Assembly (NCBI GenBank): GCA_037142615.1
Contig: JBAXAI010000001.1
Location: forward strand, 448,001 to 512,000
Direction of reading: 5' to 3'
DNA: 64,000 nucleotides
Source: Spirochaetales bacterium
Lineage (GTDB): Bacteria > Spirochaetota > Spirochaetia > JABEVK01
The notes below the pieces were generated by a model that had not been told where the DNA came from, searched no databases, and saw only the letters and a list, made by a program, of their open reading frames with translations. Positions 23,645-33,906 of this stretch are shown piece after piece (position 1 is the stretch's first letter; each line of letters begins with the position of its first letter). A program made the position numbers and the translations under genes.

Positions 23645-24334
23645 ATGCGCGTTCACAATCTGGTCAAGGATCTGGTGGTGCAGAAGGTCGACGAGATGTT
23701 TTCCGACCCGGCTGAACTCAAAGCTGCCCATCTGGACTCCGACGATCAGGGGAGCAAGTTCGACGTCATCTGCTACGTGCTCAACCGGATGCCTCCCCAT
23801 TACGTGGTCTCGGGGCGCGGGATCGCCCATGCCGAGAGCGGCGACTTCCAGGCCAAGGTCCAGAGCCTTGCCGATATGACACGAATCACCCGGGAAGGAA
23901 TGGCGTCGATAGCCAAGCACAAACGGGAGCGCACGGGCTCGTACGAAGTCGGCACCGATGGTCCCTACTTCAACTTTCCCTCGGTCATCGGCCGCTTGTT
24001 CAATGGTGTCAACTTCGAGCCTGTCCACGACATCGACTTGGGCCTCTATCACAACGGAACTCTGGTGAAGGTCATCGACCCCAATTGGCAGAATCCGTAC
24101 CGTCTGGTGCTCAATACGGCAGGAACCTACTTGTTCTGGCCCCATCCTGTCCAAGCACCCGCACTGGGGTCCGAGCAAGCCTTCGAGTTTGAGCTCCGAA
24201 CCGACGACCCACGGTTCGAGCCGCTGCACTACTTCTTCACGCTCAACGTTTCCTCCTCGCAGGAGTTCATCGATTTCGTCAACACTACGGCTTCGACGCG
24301 CCTTAAGGACCTTTACCTCTTTCCCCGTGAATAG
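23645..24334 (+). CDS. comFB: ComFB-family protein with C-terminal extension
   Basis: VHNLVKDLV...DVICYVLNRMPPHYVVS ComFB motif; AGGAGG RBS. Confidence 0.8.
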   Translation: MRVHNLVKDLVVQKVDEMFSDPAELKAAHLDSDDQGSKFDVICYVLNRMPPHYVVSGRGIAHAESGDFQAKVQSLADMTRITREGMASIAKHKRERTGSYEVGTDGPYFNFPSVIGRLFNGVNFEPVHDIDLGLYHNGTLVKVIDPNWQNPYRLVLNTAGTYLFWPHPVQAPALGSEQAFEFELRTDDPRFEPLHYFFTLNVSSSQEFIDFVNTTASTRLKDLYLFPRE

Positions 24335-27300
24335 AGCATTGCGAGCGTTTCTGGGCCTCATTTTGGTGGCGGCCCTCCTTCCTGCCCAAGAGGAAGCCCC
24401 CGATTACTTTCTCGATCCCACACTGGCGCAAGCCCTGCAGCTGGAGGCCGAAGGGTCGTGGACCAGCCGTCTCGCGTGGGGTGGCGGTCTGGTCTGGGGT
24501 CTGTCGGGCGTGTCGGCGGGAATGCCACCTGGTCTAGAGGCCGGTCTGGTCTTCTCGCAGGTTCCCGACTTATCGGTGACGGCCCAGCTTCTGGAACGTT
24601 ACTACCTCAAGGTTGTTTACACGGGCACGGTGGAATCCAACACCTTCGAGGTCGGCTACCACGGTGGTCCCGAAGAATGGCTTCGTTGGGTTCAGGCTGG
24701 AAACACGGCCTTCACGGTTCCTTCCCGCGCCGGGGTAGCGGTGGCCCCGGGTAGGCCAGGTAGCCCTGCTCTCGGCCTGGGCCTGCAAGGTGACTCGATT
24801 TCCCAGGAGTTTCTTCTTCGGTATGAAGATGGTTCACGCGAAGTACGACATTTCCGCGGGTTCGCGCCTGCCGAGGCTTCGGTCGTGTCGCCCGCCAACT
24901 GGATCCGAGGTCGGTTCTTTCAGCTGCCCGCGGGCACCTACCCGTCGTTAAGACTGTGGTTCGAGGACAATCAGCAACCCGACGGTTACCGGGAGGCAAA
25001 AGCCGAAGAGGCGGCCGTGCTCGAATCCGGTTCCATCCGTTTGGAAAAGTCGGCTCAGCTCCGATTGTGGGTTTCGTGGTCCGGCCACGCTCCTGAGCTG
25101 CTCTACGAGCCTGGAAGGAACGCTGTCGCGGAACTGCAGGACCACTATGCCTTGCCGGCCGGCGCGACGGGTCAAGGAAGTGTCGTCGACAAAGCCACCG
25201 GGACCGACAAGGCCGGTTTTGTGGTTACCGCAGAACCGGGGGCCGACTGGTTTGTGGTGCAAGGCCCCGCCGTTCCGCCGTTTCGCCTGATTTCGGAAGG
25301 GCTGTACCCAACTAGCACTACGGGAGTTCCACCGACGCCTGCGGCAGACGTGGATCTTGAGATCCGCTTTCCGGCTGAGATTCCTTCAAAACCACTTTGG
25401 GTCCTCGGTGCCGACGTCGTTCCGTCCAGTGTTCTCGTCACCCGTAACGGCTTTACCGAGACCGAGGTGACCCTTGACCCCTCGAGCGGAAACTTGACCC
25501 CCGATTTCCCCGTCGGCGAGGCCGATCTGGTGACGGTTTCCTTTCAGCGGCAACAGAAGTCGGGCACGTCTCCCGACCTGTTTGCGTGGCAAGGGGGGCA
25601 ATGGAAGCCCGAGGCCAACCAGCAGTTGGAATGGAACTCGTCACTGCGCTGGAACACGGTGCGCAACCGCTTTACGCTGACACAGAATGAGGCCCCTGGC
25701 TCAGTTTCAGCACGGACTCGCTGGACAGGAAGTTTGGGCTCCTGGAGTTGGGACTTGTCGCTGCAAGCCCAAGCCCTACTGGCTGACAGTACCGCTGGAC
25801 GTCGTCTTTTGGCCTTCGACCGGGGTGGACCCACCCTGCCCTACAACAGCGACTCGTTGCGGCCCGCCGCCGCCCCAGGCACGGTCGGATCGCTGGACCT
25901 GGGCCAACTCAGTCGCGGTCAGGCGCTCTACCGGGACTACTTCACCTGGGACGCGCTCAGTGGCGCCAATGTTCTGTCAGCCTGGGGAAAACCCGGGGTG
26001 TCAGCCGAAACGTACACCGACGGAGGCCACCTGGGACCCTATCTCGCTCTGGACGAAAAAACGGGTGCCAGACTGGCTGTACTGGAATCAGCGCTGGGGC
26101 CAGGAAAATGGACGGGGATGACCGTCTTCCTTGACAAGGGACGCCCGGTTGACCTCAGCGCAACAACCCGCGTGCGCCTGCCCCTTCGCCTGCCCTCAGG
26201 CTGGCCCGCAGGAGCGCGGTTACTGGTGCAATTCGGAGCCTTGGGAGAAGACTTCGACGGTAGCGGCGAAGTGAAGTCACTCGCCGCTTCGGCCCCTGCT
26301 TCCCTGCCCTTCACCGACGCCGCGCAGGGGTTCCAGCTCTCGTTTCCCCTGCCAGAGACTTCAACTTGGACGAATGACAGCGACGCTGACGGTGTTGCGC
26401 GACGCTCAGGTGCGGTCCTGACCCTCGAGGTGACCGACCAGGTGCCTCCAGATCCAACGGGCGACTTTGTAGTGACCCTTGACTTGACCGACGCGGAGCG
26501 CTTCTTGCTTTCGACAACCACGGCGTGGTCGCTTCTGGTGGTGAACCCGACCTCCGCCGCGATCGCGTCGTTCCCCCTGCTGGCAGGCCAAGCTCAATTT
26601 CCAGCCGCTACTTGGTCCGTAGCATCGGATCCCGGCGTAGCGGTCGGTTCTGTAGTGCAGGCCGTGGACCTGCCCGATGAAGTGCTTGGCAACCAGAGCC
26701 GCCTCGCCTGGTCGGGCCGTTCGTCGTGGACAGCCACAGCGCGATTTTCCGAGTTTATGCCCAGCCAGTATCGAAGCCTTGCGCTGGAATACCGACTGGA
26801 AGCGGCGGCGGCCACCCAGCTTACGGTTTCGATGGGCAACGCTTCCGGGGACTCGTGGCGCGCTTCGTGGCAGGTGCCTGTGGCGGCTGACGCGACGACT
26901 TGGCAAACCGCAAACCTCGACCTTTCGAACGGCAACTTGTCGGTGGGGGGAACAACGGTTCCAGCGACGGTTTGGGCCCCTGGTGGCACCTGGGACCGAA
27001 TCAGCGTGAGCCAGAACGGCGTCCCAACGGGTGTTCTGTATTTCCGGCCGCCACAGGCCTCCGACGCGGTATGGGACTACCGCTGGGGTACCGACGTCCG
27101 TGTGGCCTGGAGTCTCGGCGATACTCAATTCCGGTTTCGGGGCCTGGAATCACAGTCGCTGGGCTCGCTCCCAAACTGGAAGGCCGAGATGCAGGGACAA
27201 ACGCGTGTCGGTCCAGCTAGTTTCACCGGAGAAGTCACCTTGGACCAATCGCTGGCGGTTCACAGCTTCTACACGGCGGCGCTTTCGCTGGCGGTCCCGA

Positions 27301-28568
27301 ACTCCCCGTGGAAGCTGCAAGGGAAGGATTCCTTCGACGACTCGGGGATACGCCGCGAGTCGGCCTTGGTGCAGCTTCCCTGGTTGGGCACCTGGTCGGC
27401 CGAGGGGACTGCCGACAGTTCGCAGCTGCGGCTGGCGAGAACTTACCGTGCCGGCTGGGCCTGGGATGAGGTTCCGCAGTGGACGGCCACCGCAAACGCG
27501 CAGGTGCAACTGGGTTCCTTCCTGGCGGCGCCGAAACTGGAGTGGACCGACCAGTGGCTTCAAAGTTGGTCGTGGATGGTTCCCGAGACTTCGGTGCAAC
27601 GGACCACGCTGGAAAAGCTCTCCGGCACTTCGAACGCAGGTTTCGGTCCTGTTTCCCTCAAGACAGAGGGTTTAATTCAAGTTCTTCAGTGGGAAGGAGA
27701 TCCTTGGAAGTTCTCGCCGTCGTGGACGACCAAGGCTTCGCTTCCCGTCACGTGGGGAGCCGAGGATTCGCCCTACGTCGTGGAACCCCGGGTCTCGTGG
27801 GACGGGATGGCGTCTTGGGATCTTGCACAAGGGGACACCGCTGAGCGTTTGCCCTCGTTGGCCTGGACGCGATGGAACGGAGGGCTTGCCCCGAGTCAAC
27901 GCCGCGTCAATTCCGCAGCAGGACTCTTGTTCAGCAAAGGGACCTTTCTCGCCCAAGCAGACCTGGGTCAGTCGGTAGGAGTCGAAGCCCTCCAAGCCTT
28001 CGAAGTGACCTCGTTTTCGGGACAGTCCACCGCGAGGTTCGAGAACCTGTTCGGCAGCGCTGGACAATGGCCCGTTTTCCCGGCCTACCGCACCGACAGC
28101 CTGACTTGGACCCTCACGACCCAAGAGAGCTGGGGAACGAGGAGCAGCGACAACGCGGGCCAGGTCCAGGTCGTCCTGCAGCCCGAGGTGTACCTGACCT
28201 CACGTGAAAAACTGGCGCTCGCTGCCAAAGCCGTGTGGCAGTCCTCGGCCACGACGGCCAACCATCTGGAGCTTCAGCCCCAGTGGAGCTGGACTGGCCC
28301 CGCCAATCTGCCGTGGACCCTGCCCGGCTGGATCAGTCCACCTAAGTTCGGGCGGCAGCTCAAGTTTGACACCCGGATGTCGTGGGACTTCGGGGTTCCC
28401 GACGCGACGATACCCCTGCTGCGTCAAGTCGGCGCACGCCACCAAAGCACGCTGACGCTGTCGCCCAAAAGTGAACTTAAGTTAACACTGAACCTCAACC
28501 AAGCGTGGTCGACGGTGGCTTATGTTGTGGGAGTTCAGGCTGCTCTCGACGTTGTCCTGAGCTTCTGA
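24327..28568 (+). CDS. 1413-aa secreted/outer-membrane protein with SprA (T9SS translocon)-like motifs
   Basis: GTG start with signal peptide, Trp-rich amphipathic beta-strands, C-terminal Phe; SprA-like motifs described in findings. Confidence 0.65.
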   Translation: MNRALRAFLGLILVAALLPAQEEAPDYFLDPTLAQALQLEAEGSWTSRLAWGGGLVWGLSGVSAGMPPGLEAGLVFSQVPDLSVTAQLLERYYLKVVYTGTVESNTFEVGYHGGPEEWLRWVQAGNTAFTVPSRAGVAVAPGRPGSPALGLGLQGDSISQEFLLRYEDGSREVRHFRGFAPAEASVVSPANWIRGRFFQLPAGTYPSLRLWFEDNQQPDGYREAKAEEAAVLESGSIRLEKSAQLRLWVSWSGHAPELLYEPGRNAVAELQDHYALPAGATGQGSVVDKATGTDKAGFVVTAEPGADWFVVQGPAVPPFRLISEGLYPTSTTGVPPTPAADVDLEIRFPAEIPSKPLWVLGADVVPSSVLVTRNGFTETEVTLDPSSGNLTPDFPVGEADLVTVSFQRQQKSGTSPDLFAWQGGQWKPEANQQLEWNSSLRWNTVRNRFTLTQNEAPGSVSARTRWTGSLGSWSWDLSLQAQALLADSTAGRRLLAFDRGGPTLPYNSDSLRPAAAPGTVGSLDLGQLSRGQALYRDYFTWDALSGANVLSAWGKPGVSAETYTDGGHLGPYLALDEKTGARLAVLESALGPGKWTGMTVFLDKGRPVDLSATTRVRLPLRLPSGWPAGARLLVQFGALGEDFDGSGEVKSLAASAPASLPFTDAAQGFQLSFPLPETSTWTNDSDADGVARRSGAVLTLEVTDQVPPDPTGDFVVTLDLTDAERFLLSTTTAWSLLVVNPTSAAIASFPLLAGQAQFPAATWSVASDPGVAVGSVVQAVDLPDEVLGNQSRLAWSGRSSWTATARFSEFMPSQYRSLALEYRLEAAAATQLTVSMGNASGDSWRASWQVPVAADATTWQTANLDLSNGNLSVGGTTVPATVWAPGGTWDRISVSQNGVPTGVLYFRPPQASDAVWDYRWGTDVRVAWSLGDTQFRFRGLESQSLGSLPNWKAEMQGQTRVGPASFTGEVTLDQSLAVHSFYTAALSLAVPNSPWKLQGKDSFDDSGIRRESALVQLPWLGTWSAEGTADSSQLRLARTYRAGWAWDEVPQWTATANAQVQLGSFLAAPKLEWTDQWLQSWSWMVPETSVQRTTLEKLSGTSNAGFGPVSLKTEGLIQVLQWEGDPWKFSPSWTTKASLPVTWGAEDSPYVVEPRVSWDGMASWDLAQGDTAERLPSLAWTRWNGGLAPSQRRVNSAAGLLFSKGTFLAQADLGQSVGVEALQAFEVTSFSGQSTARFENLFGSAGQWPVFPAYRTDSLTWTLTTQESWGTRSSDNAGQVQVVLQPEVYLTSREKLALAAKAVWQSSATTANHLELQPQWSWTGPANLPWTLPGWISPPKFGRQLKFDTRMSWDFGVPDATIPLLRQVGARHQSTLTLSPKSELKLTLNLNQAWSTVAYVVGVQAALDVVLSF

Positions 28569-28609
28569 TTGTTGACAAATGTGTTATACTAATGGCTGAA
28601 GGAGTCATC

Positions 28610-29968
28610 ATGAGTCTGAGAAATCGTGTCTGTGGGGCCTTGAGTGTCCTTGTTCTACTTCTCGGGACAGGGTTGGCAAGTCCGCTCGCCGCTCAAAGTT
28701 CCTCGTTTGGCCTGGCCGGTGGCCTTGGTACAGAAGTGATCGACGGGGTGACGTTCCAAACCCTGTCTATTCTTCCCGACGTTCCCATCGGGCCTGTTGG
28801 GCTCGGTATCGACATGTCGTTCCACTTCCGCTTCTATACGACCGATGCCTTGGGCGTTCAGTCCGAGTTTGGCTTCTACCCGCGCTGGGAAGATTTCTGG
28901 GATACTTCGGCCTCCGTCACCTTTCAGGAGAACTTGTCGAAGTGGACCTCGCGGCTGGCGTACCTGCGCTACGGCAACAAAGGCGACCCGATCAACATTG
29001 TCGCCGGCGCCTTGCCCTCGGTCACGCTGGGCAACGGTTTCGTGGTCGGCAGCTACAGCAACGCCATGCTCCAACCCGCTCAGAAGTTCACGGGAATCGT
29101 GGCCAATTTCGACGGCTCGCTGTTCCAGTTCCCCTATGTGGGGCTCGAGTCCTTCACTGACAACCTTTCGTCGTTTGACCTGATCGGTCTGCGTGTGTAT
29201 GCCAAACCTTTCGGGTTCCTGCTGCCCGATGTTGCGCTACTCAAGGACATGCAAGTCGGCTTCACCGAGGTGATCGACTCCAACCCCTACATTTACGCCA
29301 CCACCACGGGAACCGGTTCCGTAGCGGTGACCGGCGTCGACACCAGCCTGACGTTCTTTTCCAATCCCGTCATTTCGGCCAAGGCTTACGGCGATTTCGC
29401 CCTGCAAGGAAGTCATGTTGGTGGGAATGTGGGCATCGGAGGCACGTTGCTGTCGTTTATCAGCTGGGGTGTGCAGAACCGCTTCCTCGGAGCTGACTTC
29501 CTTCCCGACTATTTCGACAAGACCTACGACCTCAGCCGCGACGCTAAGTACGCGATCTACAGCAACACGGGGACGGTGAAGGTCCCGGCGACGCTGGCTT
29601 GGCAGGCCTCGCTCGGTGGCAATTTGTTCGATACCATCAGTTTCGGGGCGGCCTTGGGTGGCCCCTACGGAAACGCCGCCTCTGCGACCCCAACCAAGTA
29701 CGAACTGCCCAAGCTCGAGTCCTACCTGAGCGTTGCCGAGAATCCCTTGCTCCCCATCACAGTCGATGCTTACTACAACAAAGACAAGCTGACGGGCGTG
29801 GGCGATCTGCTGAGTCCCAAAGACGCGGTGATCGGTGCGCGGATCGGTTACAAGATCGGCAATACCACCATTACGATGGTCTACAGCCTCAAGTACTTGG
29901 AAGGTTCGACGTCGGCCACCCCGTGGGAAACGACCTCGAAGCTCGAAACTGCCATCAAGTTGTTCTAG
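28610..29968 (+). CDS. Putative outer-membrane beta-barrel protein
   Basis: AAGGAG RBS, signal peptide, alternating beta-strands, ends ETAIKLF; paralogous to the C-terminal part of the next gene. Confidence 0.7.
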   Translation: MSLRNRVCGALSVLVLLLGTGLASPLAAQSSSFGLAGGLGTEVIDGVTFQTLSILPDVPIGPVGLGIDMSFHFRFYTTDALGVQSEFGFYPRWEDFWDTSASVTFQENLSKWTSRLAYLRYGNKGDPINIVAGALPSVTLGNGFVVGSYSNAMLQPAQKFTGIVANFDGSLFQFPYVGLESFTDNLSSFDLIGLRVYAKPFGFLLPDVALLKDMQVGFTEVIDSNPYIYATTTGTGSVAVTGVDTSLTFFSNPVISAKAYGDFALQGSHVGGNVGIGGTLLSFISWGVQNRFLGADFLPDYFDKTYDLSRDAKYAIYSNTGTVKVPATLAWQASLGGNLFDTISFGAALGGPYGNAASATPTKYELPKLESYLSVAENPLLPITVDAYYNKDKLTGVGDLLSPKDAVIGARIGYKIGNTTITMVYSLKYLEGSTSATPWETTSKLETAIKLF

Positions 29969-29980
29969 GAGGAATGAAAA

Positions 29981-32200
29981 ATGAAGAAATCCCTGACCGT
30001 CTTATTGGTCCTGCTGGCATTCCTGCCTGGAGTGCTCACGGCCCAAACCGCCAAGGCCCCGGCCGTCGTGCTGGTGTTTGCCGGCGACGACCCCAGTCTG
30101 ATCACAATCAAAGATAGCAACGGCAAGCAGCAGGTGGCCAATGAGGGCCTGAAGATGCAGTCCGGCTGGATCATTACGACCGCTAAGGGCGGCTCGGCCG
30201 AGCTGCAGATCAAGCCCAATGGTTCGATCATCAAGATTGCCTCGAGCACCACGTTCAAGATCAACGACCTGAACGCTGGCGACGGCAAAACAAAGAACGA
30301 TTTTGAGATAGCCAGCGGCAAGATCCGCGCGGTGGCCGCCAAGCTTGCAGGGAAGGAAGGCGAACCCGGCTACTCGCTCAAGACGCCAACCGCCAATTGC
30401 GGTGTCCGCGGTACTGACTTCATCATCAACATCGACGGGGCCCAGGAATCGCTGGTCGTCGCAGAGGGTCTGGTGGACTTCACCAAGGATGCCACCGGCG
30501 AACTTCTTCAGGTCGGTGCCGGCCAGATGGCCGATGCCCTTGCTGCCACGTTTAACCTTTTGCCGCTCGACCAGTCGGCCCTCGACGCGTTTTTCTCGGA
30601 TGTCGGCTTCATCAAGCTCGATCCGGCCGTCGTCAACGCGCTGGTCGCCCAGGCTGTTTCTCAGCAGGCCGACGTCGGCGATGTCAACACCGACAAGGGC
30701 AAGACCACCGATACGGGTAAGGCCGAAGCCAAGCCCGCCGAACCGGCCAAGGACGACCCGATTCTCGCTTGGATCAAGAAGGTTCTCGGTGCCGAGATCG
30801 GTTCCGTGACCATCGACGGGCAAACTTGGTCCAAGGCGATCTTGCAGCCAGTGATTGACACCGACGGCTTCCGTCTCGGCCTGTATCTCCCCATCATCTA
30901 CAAGTCCGACATGTTCAATCCCGACGACTGGTACAAGCCCGCCGGCAACAGTGAGTGGTCGTTCGGTACCGACCAGACTGGCTGGCTCAACATTGGCTTG
31001 GACGCGGTCTCTGACCTTGTGCTCAAGATCCGTTTCTTGGAGCTCGGCCGACAGGGCGTCGATCCGTTCTACCTCAAAATTGGTAACCTCAACACCATGA
31101 GCATCGGTCACGGCACGGTGATGAGCCATTTCGCCAACGACCAGGAGTTCCCCTCGGTCCGCAAGGTTGGCCTCAACGCTGGTGTGACTCTCGGGCCTAT
31201 CGGCCTCGAAGGCGTCGCGGACGACCTGGGATCACCTCAAGTTGTCGGCGGACGACTGTCGCTGAATGTGGTCGGAAACTGGGTCGTGTTTGGTGTGGGC
31301 GGCATCGCCGACCTCGCGCTGGTCGATCCCAAGGGTGGAAAGATCGCTGCGGACTATGGCAACCCGATCCTGATCGTCGGTGGCCTTGACACGCAGTGGA
31401 TCAACCTTGACATCGGAGTACTCCGTGCCCTGGTGTTCGCTGACGCCAACGTGCTCACCGCTTGGTACCAGAACGCCTACACGGCGAACGGTGTTACAGT
31501 GGCACAGGGTCTTGCTCTGGGAACGGTCATTGACAGCAAGGGAGTCCTGAGGTCCTACGGTGCTGAGGCCGGCGTCACCGGCAAGATACTTGGTTTGGTC
31601 GACTACCGCCTGGCGTTCCAGCTGGAAAACGGTCTGTACACCAACCAGATTTTCCGGTCGAACTACTACCGCACCAGGGCCGAAAAACTGACCGCACTCA
31701 ATTCTTACCTGACCGATACAACCTACGCGGCGACCGTCGACAAACTGTCAACGGTGGGTATCTTTGGTAGCACAGGCTTCAACATCCTGAACATCCTTAA
31801 GTTCGAAGGCGCCTACCGCTGGCCGATGTCACTCGACTCGACCGGGAAGATTGTGTTCAGTCCTGACGGAACCTTGGCGACAGTGCAGGACTCGTTGGCC
31901 TTCAAGCTCGAAATCCCCAAGGGAGCCCTTCCCGACTTCATCAAGCTGTCGGGAGCCGTGAGCTACGAACGAACCAAGTTTGTCAGCACGCTGGCTCAGC
32001 AGGGAACCAGTCTCAATCTGTTCGACGCCAACACCGTGCTCAAGGGAGAAATCCTGTACGGTGTGGTGCAGGGAGTTGACCTGGCCATCGGCGTGACGAC
32101 GCTCGTCAAGCGCAATGCCGACGGCACGGTGGTCTACGAGACGAACGGACAGCCCAAGATTCTGCCCACGATCAACCTGGAAACCCGCATCGGGTTCTGA
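29981..32200 (+). CDS. FecR-domain protein with linker and putative C-terminal beta-barrel
   Basis: Signal peptide; ITTAKGGSAEL...IKIASST and KTPTANCGVRGTDF...VAEGLV FecR motifs; ends ETRIGF. Confidence 0.8.
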   Translation: MKKSLTVLLVLLAFLPGVLTAQTAKAPAVVLVFAGDDPSLITIKDSNGKQQVANEGLKMQSGWIITTAKGGSAELQIKPNGSIIKIASSTTFKINDLNAGDGKTKNDFEIASGKIRAVAAKLAGKEGEPGYSLKTPTANCGVRGTDFIINIDGAQESLVVAEGLVDFTKDATGELLQVGAGQMADALAATFNLLPLDQSALDAFFSDVGFIKLDPAVVNALVAQAVSQQADVGDVNTDKGKTTDTGKAEAKPAEPAKDDPILAWIKKVLGAEIGSVTIDGQTWSKAILQPVIDTDGFRLGLYLPIIYKSDMFNPDDWYKPAGNSEWSFGTDQTGWLNIGLDAVSDLVLKIRFLELGRQGVDPFYLKIGNLNTMSIGHGTVMSHFANDQEFPSVRKVGLNAGVTLGPIGLEGVADDLGSPQVVGGRLSLNVVGNWVVFGVGGIADLALVDPKGGKIAADYGNPILIVGGLDTQWINLDIGVLRALVFADANVLTAWYQNAYTANGVTVAQGLALGTVIDSKGVLRSYGAEAGVTGKILGLVDYRLAFQLENGLYTNQIFRSNYYRTRAEKLTALNSYLTDTTYAATVDKLSTVGIFGSTGFNILNILKFEGAYRWPMSLDSTGKIVFSPDGTLATVQDSLAFKLEIPKGALPDFIKLSGAVSYERTKFVSTLAQQGTSLNLFDANTVLKGEILYGVVQGVDLAIGVTTLVKRNADGTVVYETNGQPKILPTINLETRIGF

Positions 32201-33906
32201 TGACAAAGCCACACGCCCCCCGGAGGATCAAGGTCCTCCGGGATGAGGTGGCCCGCAAGATCGCGGCCGGCGAGGTGATCGACCGGCCGCTTTCTGTTCT
32301 ACGGGAACTGATTGACAACAGCTTGGATGCCGGTGCCACGCACCTCGACATCCGGCTGGTTTCCGGTGGCCTTCAAAGCCTTGAGGTCACCGACAACGGG
32401 TGCGGCATGACCCGCGAAGACCTTGAGCTCTGCTGGCTCCCGCACACCACTTCCAAGATAGAAAGTGAAGAGGATCTCAATACTCTGTCGAGCCTCGGCT
32501 TTCGCGGCGAAGCCTTGGCCAGCATTTCTGCCTGCAGCCGCGTCAGGATCCTCACGTCTACCGACGACACTGGCCTTGCCTGGGAGCTGAAGCTCGAAGA
32601 AGGTCAGCCACCCTCGCTCAAGAAGGCCTCGGGACCACGAGGAACCCGGGTCACCGTCGAAGATTTGTTTTACAACATTCCGGCACGACGGAAGTTCCTC
32701 AAGTCATCGTCGGCCGAGCAGACGCTTTGTCGCCGCGTGGTGGAGGAAAAGGCCCTCGCCAGGCCGGATTGTGGCTTTTCACTGTGGCAAGAGGGAACGC
32801 AAAGGGCCTACTTCGCCCCAGGGCCCGAACTTCAGCGGGTCCAGAGTGTCCTTGGGGCACCTTGGGACGCGGCCGAGGTTCTGGTTTTTCAGGCCCAACG
32901 TCCAGGTTTGGCCGTGCACGGCTTTTCGCTCGCGCCGCCCCACTCGCGTTCCGACCGCAAGGGCATTCGAATCTATGCCAACGGTCGCCCTTTGCAGGAG
33001 TTTGCCTTGGTTCAGGCCGTCACGTACGCGTACGAAGGGTATTTGCCGGGCGGGGCGTGGCCCTTGGCCGTCGTTTTCGCCGAAGTGGATCCAGCGCTGG
33101 TCGACTTCAACATCCACCCCGCCAAGCGTGAGGCCCGCTTTCGCAATGCCGCCGATCTGCACCAGGCGTTGGTCGAGGGGGTTCGGGAGGCGCTCACAGC
33201 GACACAGTTAGCCTTTCCCCCGGCACAGAGAACCGAACAGCAGCCACTTGCCTTCGAACTGCCCCAAGTGGCCTCGCCGGCGTTGCGTGGAAGGGCCCAA
33301 CTTCCGTCGGTAGACTTTTGGGATGCTGGCGGGAACGAACTTCGAGAGACTCCCGCGCTGGCCCCCGGATTCCGGTATCTGGGTCAGGTACTTGGCGTGT
33401 TTCTCGTTGCCGAGGTTGGCGACACGCTGTATTTGGTGGACCAACATGCGGCCCACGAACGTATTCTCTTCGATCGTTACCGGGCCCAGGGTGGCGAAGG
33501 ACAGGCCCTCCTGTTCCCGCGGCGCTTCCTGCTCGAAGAAGACGCCGCCCGCGTGGTCGAACGTCAAATGGAAGACTGGTCATCGATCGGCATCGGCATC
33601 CGGCAATTGTCGCCTCTGGAGTTTGAGCTTGTGCGCCTGCCGCAGTTGGTCGTCGGACGGGAACGGGAGCTCATCGAGTTCCTCGAACAAAGCCGCAAGC
33701 CCGTCGCCGACGTCGAAAAGGATTTCTACGCCAGCTTTTCGTGCCGTGCGGCCGTCATGGACGGCGACCCCCTGGATCCGCAGGCGGCCAGGGAGCTCCT
33801 GACGCAAGCGTTTGCGCTTGCGCATGCACGCTGCCCTCACGGCCGCCCGTTGTGGACCACGCTCACGCGGGACGAGCTTTTCACCCGTGTCGGGCGCCTC
33901 GTTTAG
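32200..33906 (+). CDS. mutL: DNA mismatch repair protein MutL
   Basis: KIAAGEVIDRP, RELIDNSLDAGA, LGFRGEALASI, DQHAAHERI and CPHGRP endonuclease motifs. Confidence 0.96.
   Translation: MTKPHAPRRIKVLRDEVARKIAAGEVIDRPLSVLRELIDNSLDAGATHLDIRLVSGGLQSLEVTDNGCGMTREDLELCWLPHTTSKIESEEDLNTLSSLGFRGEALASISACSRVRILTSTDDTGLAWELKLEEGQPPSLKKASGPRGTRVTVEDLFYNIPARRKFLKSSSAEQTLCRRVVEEKALARPDCGFSLWQEGTQRAYFAPGPELQRVQSVLGAPWDAAEVLVFQAQRPGLAVHGFSLAPPHSRSDRKGIRIYANGRPLQEFALVQAVTYAYEGYLPGGAWPLAVVFAEVDPALVDFNIHPAKREARFRNAADLHQALVEGVREALTATQLAFPPAQRTEQQPLAFELPQVASPALRGRAQLPSVDFWDAGGNELRETPALAPGFRYLGQVLGVFLVAEVGDTLYLVDQHAAHERILFDRYRAQGGEGQALLFPRRFLLEEDAARVVERQMEDWSSIGIGIRQLSPLEFELVRLPQLVVGRERELIEFLEQSRKPVADVEKDFYASFSCRAAVMDGDPLDPQAARELLTQAFALAHARCPHGRPLWTTLTRDELFTRVGRLV

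Follow-up and report, generated by a model that had tools for sequence, protein, structure and literature searches.

A 64,000-nucleotide (nt) stretch of DNA from a Spirochaetales bacterium (NCBI GenBank assembly GCA_037142615.1, contig JBAXAI010000001.1, positions 448,001 to 512,000 of the forward strand; hereafter the window, in whose own numbering positions are given unless a contig is named) carries a gene whose predicted product resembles SprA, the translocon of the type IX system for protein secretion (T9SS). An earlier note, made from the sequence alone, had described this product as a reduced outer-membrane translocon of the SprA type. The gene lies in a stop-to-stop open frame at 24189–28568 (+), and its features are as follows, with lengths in amino acids (aa).

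24327–28568, plus strand: gene for the SprA-like outer-membrane protein, GTG start, stop included, 1413 aa
24327–24389, plus strand: predicted Sec signal peptide, residues 1–21 (VNRALRAFLGLILVAALLPAQ before EE; cleavage after AQ read by eye)
24552–24704, plus strand: motif 1, the N-terminal core (…NTFEVGYHGGPEEWLRWVQAGN), with a first part FSQVPDL...KVVY at nt 24552–24620 and a second part FEVGYHGGPEEWLRWVQAGN at nt 24645–24704; Y111, G113 and G125 invariant in 19 orthologs
24888–24926, plus strand: motif 2, SPANWIRGRFFQL; family consensus IRGRFFxLPD
25404–25496, plus strand: motif 3, LGADVVPSSVLVTRNG (nt 25404–25451) … TLDPSSGNL (nt 25470–25496); N374 invariant in 19 orthologs
26109–26267, plus strand: motif 4, WTGMTVFL (nt 26109–26132) … DLS … LLVQFGALGEDFDGSG (nt 26220–26267); W595, G637 and E641 invariant in 19 orthologs
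26679–27041, plus strand: jelly-roll (CBM11-like) beta-sandwich, about residues 785–905, limits approximate
27072–28565, plus strand: succession of long beta-strands at the C-terminal end (barrel wall), residues ~916–1413, from DSSP and VIA on a model of residues 24–1223

The open reading frame (ORF), signal peptide, tryptophan richness and terminal phenylalanine that the earlier note had read from the DNA were all reproduced: the 1413-aa protein contains 4.5% Trp, begins with a leader that is basic and then hydrophobic (…FLGLILVAALLPAQ before EE) and ends in ...VVLSF, and all four of the motifs it had pointed out were found by string location, at nt 24552–26267. The gene was found in 30 of 41 related genomes, in open frames of ~1400–1670 aa with zero internal stops. 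An alignment of 19 full-length orthologs (A1, the window protein plus 18 extracted sequences) has 20 invariant columns, including Y111, G113, G125, N374, W595, G637 and E641, and in all 19 proteins the N-terminus is a hydrophobic leader and the last residue F or Y. The motifs are thus the conserved cores of a family and represent more than chance similarity. A profile of the N-terminal 700 residues of this family (A2), searched among 1.84 billion proteins, retrieved 1340 cluster representatives at E ≤ 1e-3, including 548 at E ≤ 1e-30; the 150 matches listed are mostly 1400–1720 aa long, and the last residue in 128 further full-length members is F in 85 cases, Y in 27, L in 11, W in 4 and P in 1. 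Related-locus searches with single proteins gave zero relatives for the window protein alone, and only its own record for the family member P0019, from an uncultured Spirochaetales bacterium.

The relationship to SprA was recovered at the level of family profiles. Searched against 5.8 billion proteins, the A1 profile gave four out-of-family matches, all of which bear the Pfam domain SprA_N (PF14349): P0015 (E = 3.3e-5), P0016 (labelled ‘cell surface protein SprA’, E = 6.8e-5), P0017 (E = 0.032) and P0018 (E = 0.1). P0016 was confirmed as SprA by a match at E = 6.7e-117 to the PDB chain 6h3i_A, which bears the name ‘Protein involved in gliding motility SprA’. With an alignment of these four proteins (A3) as the SprA side, profile-profile comparison in hhalign scored 99.76% (E = 1.5e-27) over 899 columns, A1 columns 74–1019 falling on SprA columns 205–1383; a local rerun gave 99.5% with all four motifs paired, and the reversed-SprA control gave 0.1% (E = 0.54). 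The C-terminal half alone scored 87.8%, matching through the jelly-roll part only. Identity between the SprA-like protein and SprA is only ~10–14%. A search of PDB sequences with the window protein alone returned enoyl-ACP reductase (E = 0.54) as its sole match, which we set aside as noise. In an Atlas feature search, which is a weaker hint and dependent on the other evidence, 25 of the 30 nearest clusters fell in a set whose best cluster has SprA_N on 12% of its members.

This comparison bears out the collinear parallel with SprA motifs that the earlier note had drawn, as hhalign pairs each of the four with a counterpart in P0016: motif 1 with …KIKYTGYEDEIVQSVEAGN, motif 2 with DYSDNYYFID, motif 3 with LGFNVVPGSVRVTLNG…YTVNDQMGTV, and motif 4 with WASIIRLL…NLV…LIIDMGKISEDVIPNG. 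Counterparts of motif 2 also occur in shorter SprA_N-bearing proteins (YVRGQFFFL in P0017, FESGRFFWV in P0018), whose RG(R/Q)FF motif is almost identical to that of the window family. The jelly-roll, which the family profile matches to CBM11 among PDB sequences (E = 0.015) and which VIA aligns to 6r31 over 148 residues (Z 12.7), is placed by hhalign on SprA 1295–1502 (query 771–930); the SprA segment opposite it is its homolog, and we therefore take the domain to be inherited and not a carbohydrate-binding module gained by addition.

An AlphaFold2 model of residues 24–1223, built from a 50-row alignment, reached a predicted local distance difference test (pLDDT) score of 82.1 and a predicted template modelling score (pTM) of 0.63. 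DSSP assigns it 24 strands of at least 10 residues, with 15 strands of 9–17 residues between model residues 893 and 1181, and ~8 further strands were read by eye from the sequence of the tail (1224–1413). The comparison with the Flavobacterium SprA structure that the earlier note had proposed came out in its favour, the four best Foldseek matches in the PDB all being SprA chains (ranks 1–4, E 3e-34 to 4e-24), with query-based template modelling scores (TMq) of 0.52 for 8gl6_A (E = 3.1e-34), 0.54 for 8gl8_A, 0.53 for 6h3i_A and 0.44 for 6h3j_A, and a fall to 0.09 at rank 5. VIA-align superposed 1060 residues on 8gl6_A (Z 16.5, root-mean-square deviation (rmsd) 8.3 Å; model 15–1187 onto chain 136–2026) and 1038 residues on 6h3i_A (Z 16.2); from these ranges, ~1170 residues here span what occupies ~1890 in SprA. 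In VIA, the rows other than SprA show either one domain (CBM11, 148 residues) or a generic barrel aligned over at most 370 residues, and the SprA alignment is ~3 times longer than that of any other barrel. LptD, FimD/PapC and TonB-dependent receptors share a generic barrel wall with the model (VIA Z ~10–12, 290–350 residues), but cover only a fraction of it and have zero motif or profile similarity to the family.

The profile-profile match, together with the four SprA chains at the top of the structural search, identifies a real, reduced barrel of the SprA family. The proposal of a reduced SprA-type protein therefore holds at the level of superfamily membership, by hhalign and by AlphaFold, Foldseek and VIA alike, with significant matches to SprA both in profile (E = 1.5e-27) and in structure (Foldseek E = 3e-34), the lack of which the earlier note would have counted against it. 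We consider it almost certain that the protein is homologous to SprA over residues ~63–930 and adopts a SprA-like three-dimensional arrangement over at least residues 38–1210.

Compared with SprA/Sov (Flavobacterium johnsoniae, 2403 aa; PDB 6H3I, 6H3J, 8GL6, 8GL8), the window protein shares the signal peptide, a predicted giant beta-barrel architecture, the order of the N-terminal and middle motifs, the jelly-roll and the 1060 residues aligned at Z 16.5. It differs in its length of 1413 aa, as against 2403 aa in SprA, 1945–2479 aa in P0015–P0018 and the usual ~2000–2500 aa; nothing in it corresponds to SprA's first 200–290 residues or to many SprA inserts, its C-terminal part has about half the length, and it falls below every curated SprA model. 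Its setting differs too, with other gene neighbours and a genome in which PorV, Plug/PorP-type proteins, PorU, GldKLM and C-terminal domain (CTD) cargo were not found. The closest out-of-family sequences are shorter SprA_N proteins from outside Bacteroidota (P0015, the Gemmatimonadota-labelled P0017, and P0018; 1945–2022 aa), which, unlike the window protein, are recognised by Pfam as SprA_N and are ~550 residues longer.

Across the phylum, A2 matched in 74 of 151 sampled Spirochaetota genomes, in open frames of 511–2344 aa that mostly measure 1600–2000 aa. The curated SprA model TIGR04189 gave sub-threshold matches in 54 of the 151 (best 97 bits, E = 3e-28) and matches over its cut-off in 0 of 151, with none in the window's class; in the rows compared, the matching ORFs, of 1730–2344 aa, are also matched by A2. 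Many of these longer forms have the same two-barrel neighbours as the window gene, described below, and they are closer to SprA than the window protein is; judging from their profile matches, they are a bridge to canonical SprA. PorV-family barrels occur in eight of the 151 genomes (G044, G046, G060, G073, G085, G097, G108 and G118; seven over the Pfam cut-off), all belonging to classes other than the window's, which is without PorV. A SprA-like ORF of 1915–2219 aa was found in seven of these eight and none in G118. Four of them (G044, G060, G073 and G097) have 31–54 Por_Secre_tail matches each, nearly all of those listed being over the cut-off, compared with zero in the PorV-less genome G147. 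GldM was found in 0 of 5 PorV-bearing genomes with one model and over the cut-off in 0 of 8 with another, a weak negative given that the controls were silent too. These PorV- and CTD-rich Spirochaetota look like bearers of a type 9-like system outside the Fibrobacteres–Chlorobi–Bacteroidetes (FCB) group and, as read from gene content, the phylum is a series with a SprA-like protein, PorV and CTD cargo at one end and the PorV-less short form at the other.

In the window, the SprA-like gene is flanked by three genes on the same strand.

23645–24334, plus strand: ComFB-like gene, 229 aa (Pfam ComFB, E = 6e-11)
28610–29968, plus strand: porin-like outer-membrane barrel, 452 aa, 42 nt downstream of the SprA-like gene
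29981–32200, plus strand: protein of 739 aa with a signal peptide, a periplasmic FecR domain and a C-terminal barrel (Pfam FecR, E = 2.6e-12)

The stop of the ComFB-like gene and the GTG of the SprA-like gene overlap by 8 nt. The ComFB domain covers residues 4–92 only, with ~135 unassigned C-terminal residues beyond it. This arrangement is conserved: among 21 loci from relatives, 11 have the ComFB-like gene immediately upstream, and most of the remainder include too little upstream DNA to judge. Downstream, the 452-aa barrel and the FecR-barrel are paralogs (A6 barrel profile E = 5.7e-13; Atlas structure TM 0.78), and mutL is the next gene after the FecR-barrel gene. An AlphaFold model of the 452-aa barrel (pLDDT 82.3, ~20 strands) resembles generic 18-strand channels (MOMP, AlgE, Occ) in Foldseek; its profile has zero matches among PDB sequences, and Atlas returns its own family and the FecR-barrel family only. 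Spirochaetota is the commonest phylum for Atlas clusters of the neighbouring gene, which, with the Spirochaetales origin of the P0019 record, upholds the assignment to the spirochetes. The order SprA-like gene, barrel, FecR-barrel on one strand is present in 13 of 30 gene-bearing relatives, spanning 10 GTDB families, and in most of the remaining relatives they are split between contigs, which are often truncated; in one genus the SprA-like gene has mutL right after it, and the barrel was not found with the query used. Outside the window's class, at least 10 genomes show the same adjacency, among them G073 of a PorV/CTD-rich lineage. The short gap at 28570–28609, before the 452-aa gene, reads TTGACA, then TGTTATACT (extended -10-like), then the ribosome-binding site GAAGGAG. 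An internal promoter may thus drive the two barrel genes apart from the SprA-like gene; the element was not among the results of a consensus promoter scan.

Metagenomes of freshwater and lake water contain near-identical DNA, with at least half of the sampled words present in six runs (four studies), two of which may be the source of the window DNA itself. In two metatranscriptome runs of one study, contigs extend over 28610–32454, across both barrel genes, and start at 28610 and 28618; the same runs contain pieces of the SprA-like gene (24218–24418 and 24809–25054) and a ComFB-like piece, and the gap in coverage between 25055 and 28609 proves nothing. As RNA libraries may contain DNA, these contigs are only a hint of transcription. 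One contig (run X12) skips 329 nt, 29468–29798, at the junction of the barrel genes, with GT..GC ends; this skip may be an assembly artefact between the paralogs.

SprA has the largest known protein-conducting barrel made of a single chain. In a structural report, it is described as a capped 36-strand barrel with a lateral opening, in whose lumen the substrate is held until it leaves laterally, bound to PorV and with its help, in a motor-driven step (PMC10994853). The reading that we favour, at a probability of roughly 55%, is that the window gene encodes a Sec-exported outer-membrane protein, a distant SprA/Sov homolog ~40% shorter, that would serve as a protein conduit. The barrel would act as a wide passage through the outer membrane, with large surface or secreted proteins as its probable cargo. 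Its mode of action would differ from that of SprA in working without PorV, PorP/SprF, PorU, GldK/L/M or cargo bearing a C-terminal signal, for the SprA mechanism cannot apply unchanged when carrier, motor and signal were not found. We put even odds on a conduit that would be motor-independent and possibly aided by the adjacent barrels; that the two downstream barrels would be its working partners, in roles comparable to a gate or a carrier, is a more tentative suggestion.

Several findings weigh against a conduit of this kind, starting with the sequence itself. Pfam and NCBIfam, searched with the SprA-like protein as a single sequence, had zero matches up to E = 10, TIGR04189 had none anywhere in the genome and weak ones in only 2 of the 19 orthologs (best E = 0.017), the family profile reached CBM11 alone among PDB sequences (E = 0.015) and not SprA, and the barrel wall (residues ~930–1413) has zero sequence-level match to SprA in hhalign. 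The profile check suggested by the earlier note consequently came out divided, with no match to the curated TIGR04189 and SprA_N models (SprA_N also matched 0 of 5 further family members) and a clear one in profile-profile comparison (99.76%, E = 1.5e-27). In structure, the fit to SprA is global yet loose (rmsd 8.3 Å, TM 0.52–0.54), and the model stops at residue 1223, with closure, strand number and lateral opening lying beyond it. Release of substrate in Flavobacterium requires PorV and motor energy (PMC10994853).

The rest of the genome, which is 96.7% complete, weighs on the same side, although there is no organism with a T9SS among the 14 control genomes and most of the component negatives are thus without a positive control. 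The PorV model PF19572 had zero genome matches at E ≤ 1 while a control genome gave signal, and PorP/SprF (TIGR03519) was not found. Among motor and ring components, for which GldK, GldL and GldM were covered and GldN was not searched, GldM (TIGR03517) gave nothing and GldL (TIGR03513) at most 14 bits versus a cut-off of 68, both with no T9SS control genome; GldK (TIGR03525) gave only paralogs of its C-terminal formylglycine-generating enzyme (FGE)-sulfatase domain, at most 82 bits versus 350. The best PorU (NF033707) match scored 18 bits versus a cut-off of 420. Por_Secre_tail (TIGR04183) had 3 sub-threshold genome matches and none over the cut-off, the best forming the extreme C-terminus of an ORF of 5062 aa, in a domain that Pfam calls FlgD_ig. 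We rejected FlgD_ig as a cargo tag: its 18 genome matches are confined to 6 ORFs, and of 3 ORFs checked only that of 5062 aa carries a terminal one, the two other arrays being internal and ending at least 270 aa before the stop. The expectation of T9SS-like partners did not hold for GldK, GldL, GldM, PorP or PorU, none of which had a match over its cut-off, nor did that of a CTD/FlgD-Ig cargo set; the search for PorV/UPF0164-like barrels succeeded in part, with no PorV and a single UPF0164-family barrel of the FadL/PorV-like clan (G000:C1:191456-192298 (-), 135.7 bits) ~280 kb from the SprA-like gene. The neighbouring 452-aa barrel, considered as a PorV analog, is unsupported in that role though it may still fill it, as no PorV appears in its best 50 Foldseek ranks and the FadL-type TodX reaches a TMq of 0.21–0.23. 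Finally, 50 of the 151 Spirochaetota genomes have both the SprA-like and the barrel gene, 24 the SprA-like gene only, 30 the barrel only and 47 neither; the genes are thus separable across the phylum, and the downstream barrels are not obligatory partners.

Several further observations were made in the course of these genome searches (G000). A pair of giant ORFs, 5062 and 5339 aa long, lies outside the window, at C5:~138939-154100 (-) and on C24 (-); the FlgD_ig/CTD-like domain of the former ends three codons before the stop, making it the only candidate C-terminal-signal protein seen. Ten ORFs (on C2, C5, C9, C13, C41, C55, C59 and C67) have a GldK-like C-terminal FGE-sulfatase domain at 41–82 bits, an unusually large set in which none is a GldK ortholog by its TIGR03525 score. 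A 2210-aa open frame at ~62695 of the window (G000:C1:510695-510811, -) gave a meaningless weak match (E = 0.57) in the PorU search.

Given the porin-like folds of the co-located barrels (MOMP, AlgE and Occ being the best matches), the SprA fold may instead have been re-purposed as a wide uptake or exchange channel, or as part of a sensor-coupled porin complex with the downstream barrels, and not serve as an exporter. One of these partners has a FecR domain, a family that links uptake receptors of the outer membrane to signalling; the SprA-like protein has a CBM11-like jelly-roll, and secretion signal class, carrier and motor were all missing from the searches of this genome. We nevertheless find such a change of function unlikely: the jelly-roll is inherited from SprA and not a newly gained sugar-binding module, the barrels are not obligatory partners (24 of 151 genomes have only the SprA-like gene and 30 of 151 only the barrel), and protein export is the only function known for the SprA fold (PMC10994853). 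Less probable still is a structural part in envelope biogenesis, such as an outer-membrane scaffold, with transport lost along with the rest of the system. A protein ~40% shorter than SprA (1413 versus 2403 aa), a genome missing all T9SS partners tested, and housekeeping genes such as mutL among the neighbours would fit a scaffold, but the ORF is intact in all matches with zero internal stops, 20 columns are invariant across distant orthologs, the motifs kept are those conserved in working SprA proteins, and the gene occurs widely in the phylum (74 of 151 genomes). Intact frames, invariant columns, retained motifs and wide spread together point to selection acting on the core that SprA also relies on.

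In principle, the resemblance itself could have arisen by chance or from the composition of large, Trp-rich beta-barrels, seeing that single-sequence and hidden Markov model (HMM)-versus-sequence searches find nothing and that identity to SprA is only ~10–14%. The computations already contradict this explanation, to which we attach a very small probability: the reversed-profile control drops to 0.1%, all out-of-family matches among 5.8 billion proteins bear SprA_N, the independent structural route puts four SprA chains first with ~3 times the aligned length of other barrels, and spirochaetal forms of intermediate length are matched by both profiles.

One paper (PMC4793230) reports the T9SS in Bacteroidetes only, and further abstracts likewise treat it as particular to Bacteroidota. 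No title, abstract or passage in the literature searched, which leaves most subscription-journal papers and supplements outside, describes SprA-like proteins in spirochetes; in a Brachyspira preprint, SprA is named only while describing a FadL/PorV-like protein.

Few outer-membrane export routes are recognised in spirochetes, and inventories of their outer-membrane proteins are of practical interest. An unannotated protein of ~1400–2300 aa, with a predicted SprA fold and present in about half of the sampled phylum, is thus a concrete candidate for such a route. A SprA relative in a genome where the other T9SS parts were not found suggests a pore family broader and less tied to that system than has been assumed. 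It is possible, if somewhat doubtful in its full extent, that SprA-type barrels are older and broader than the T9SS, with free-living spirochetes running a motor-less, PorV-less and CTD-less version, often with the FecR-barrel and its porin-like paralog, and exporting large envelope or secreted proteins through an undescribed mechanism, while other lineages would keep SprA, PorV and CTD cargo without a recognisable GldM. As a ‘minimal SprA’ made by nature, the window protein would help to work out which translocon parts are indispensable, and it is relevant to the question of whether a pore that already existed was the starting point for the T9SS; the PorV/CTD-rich Spirochaetota, if true carriers of such a system, would extend type 9-like secretion beyond the FCB group.

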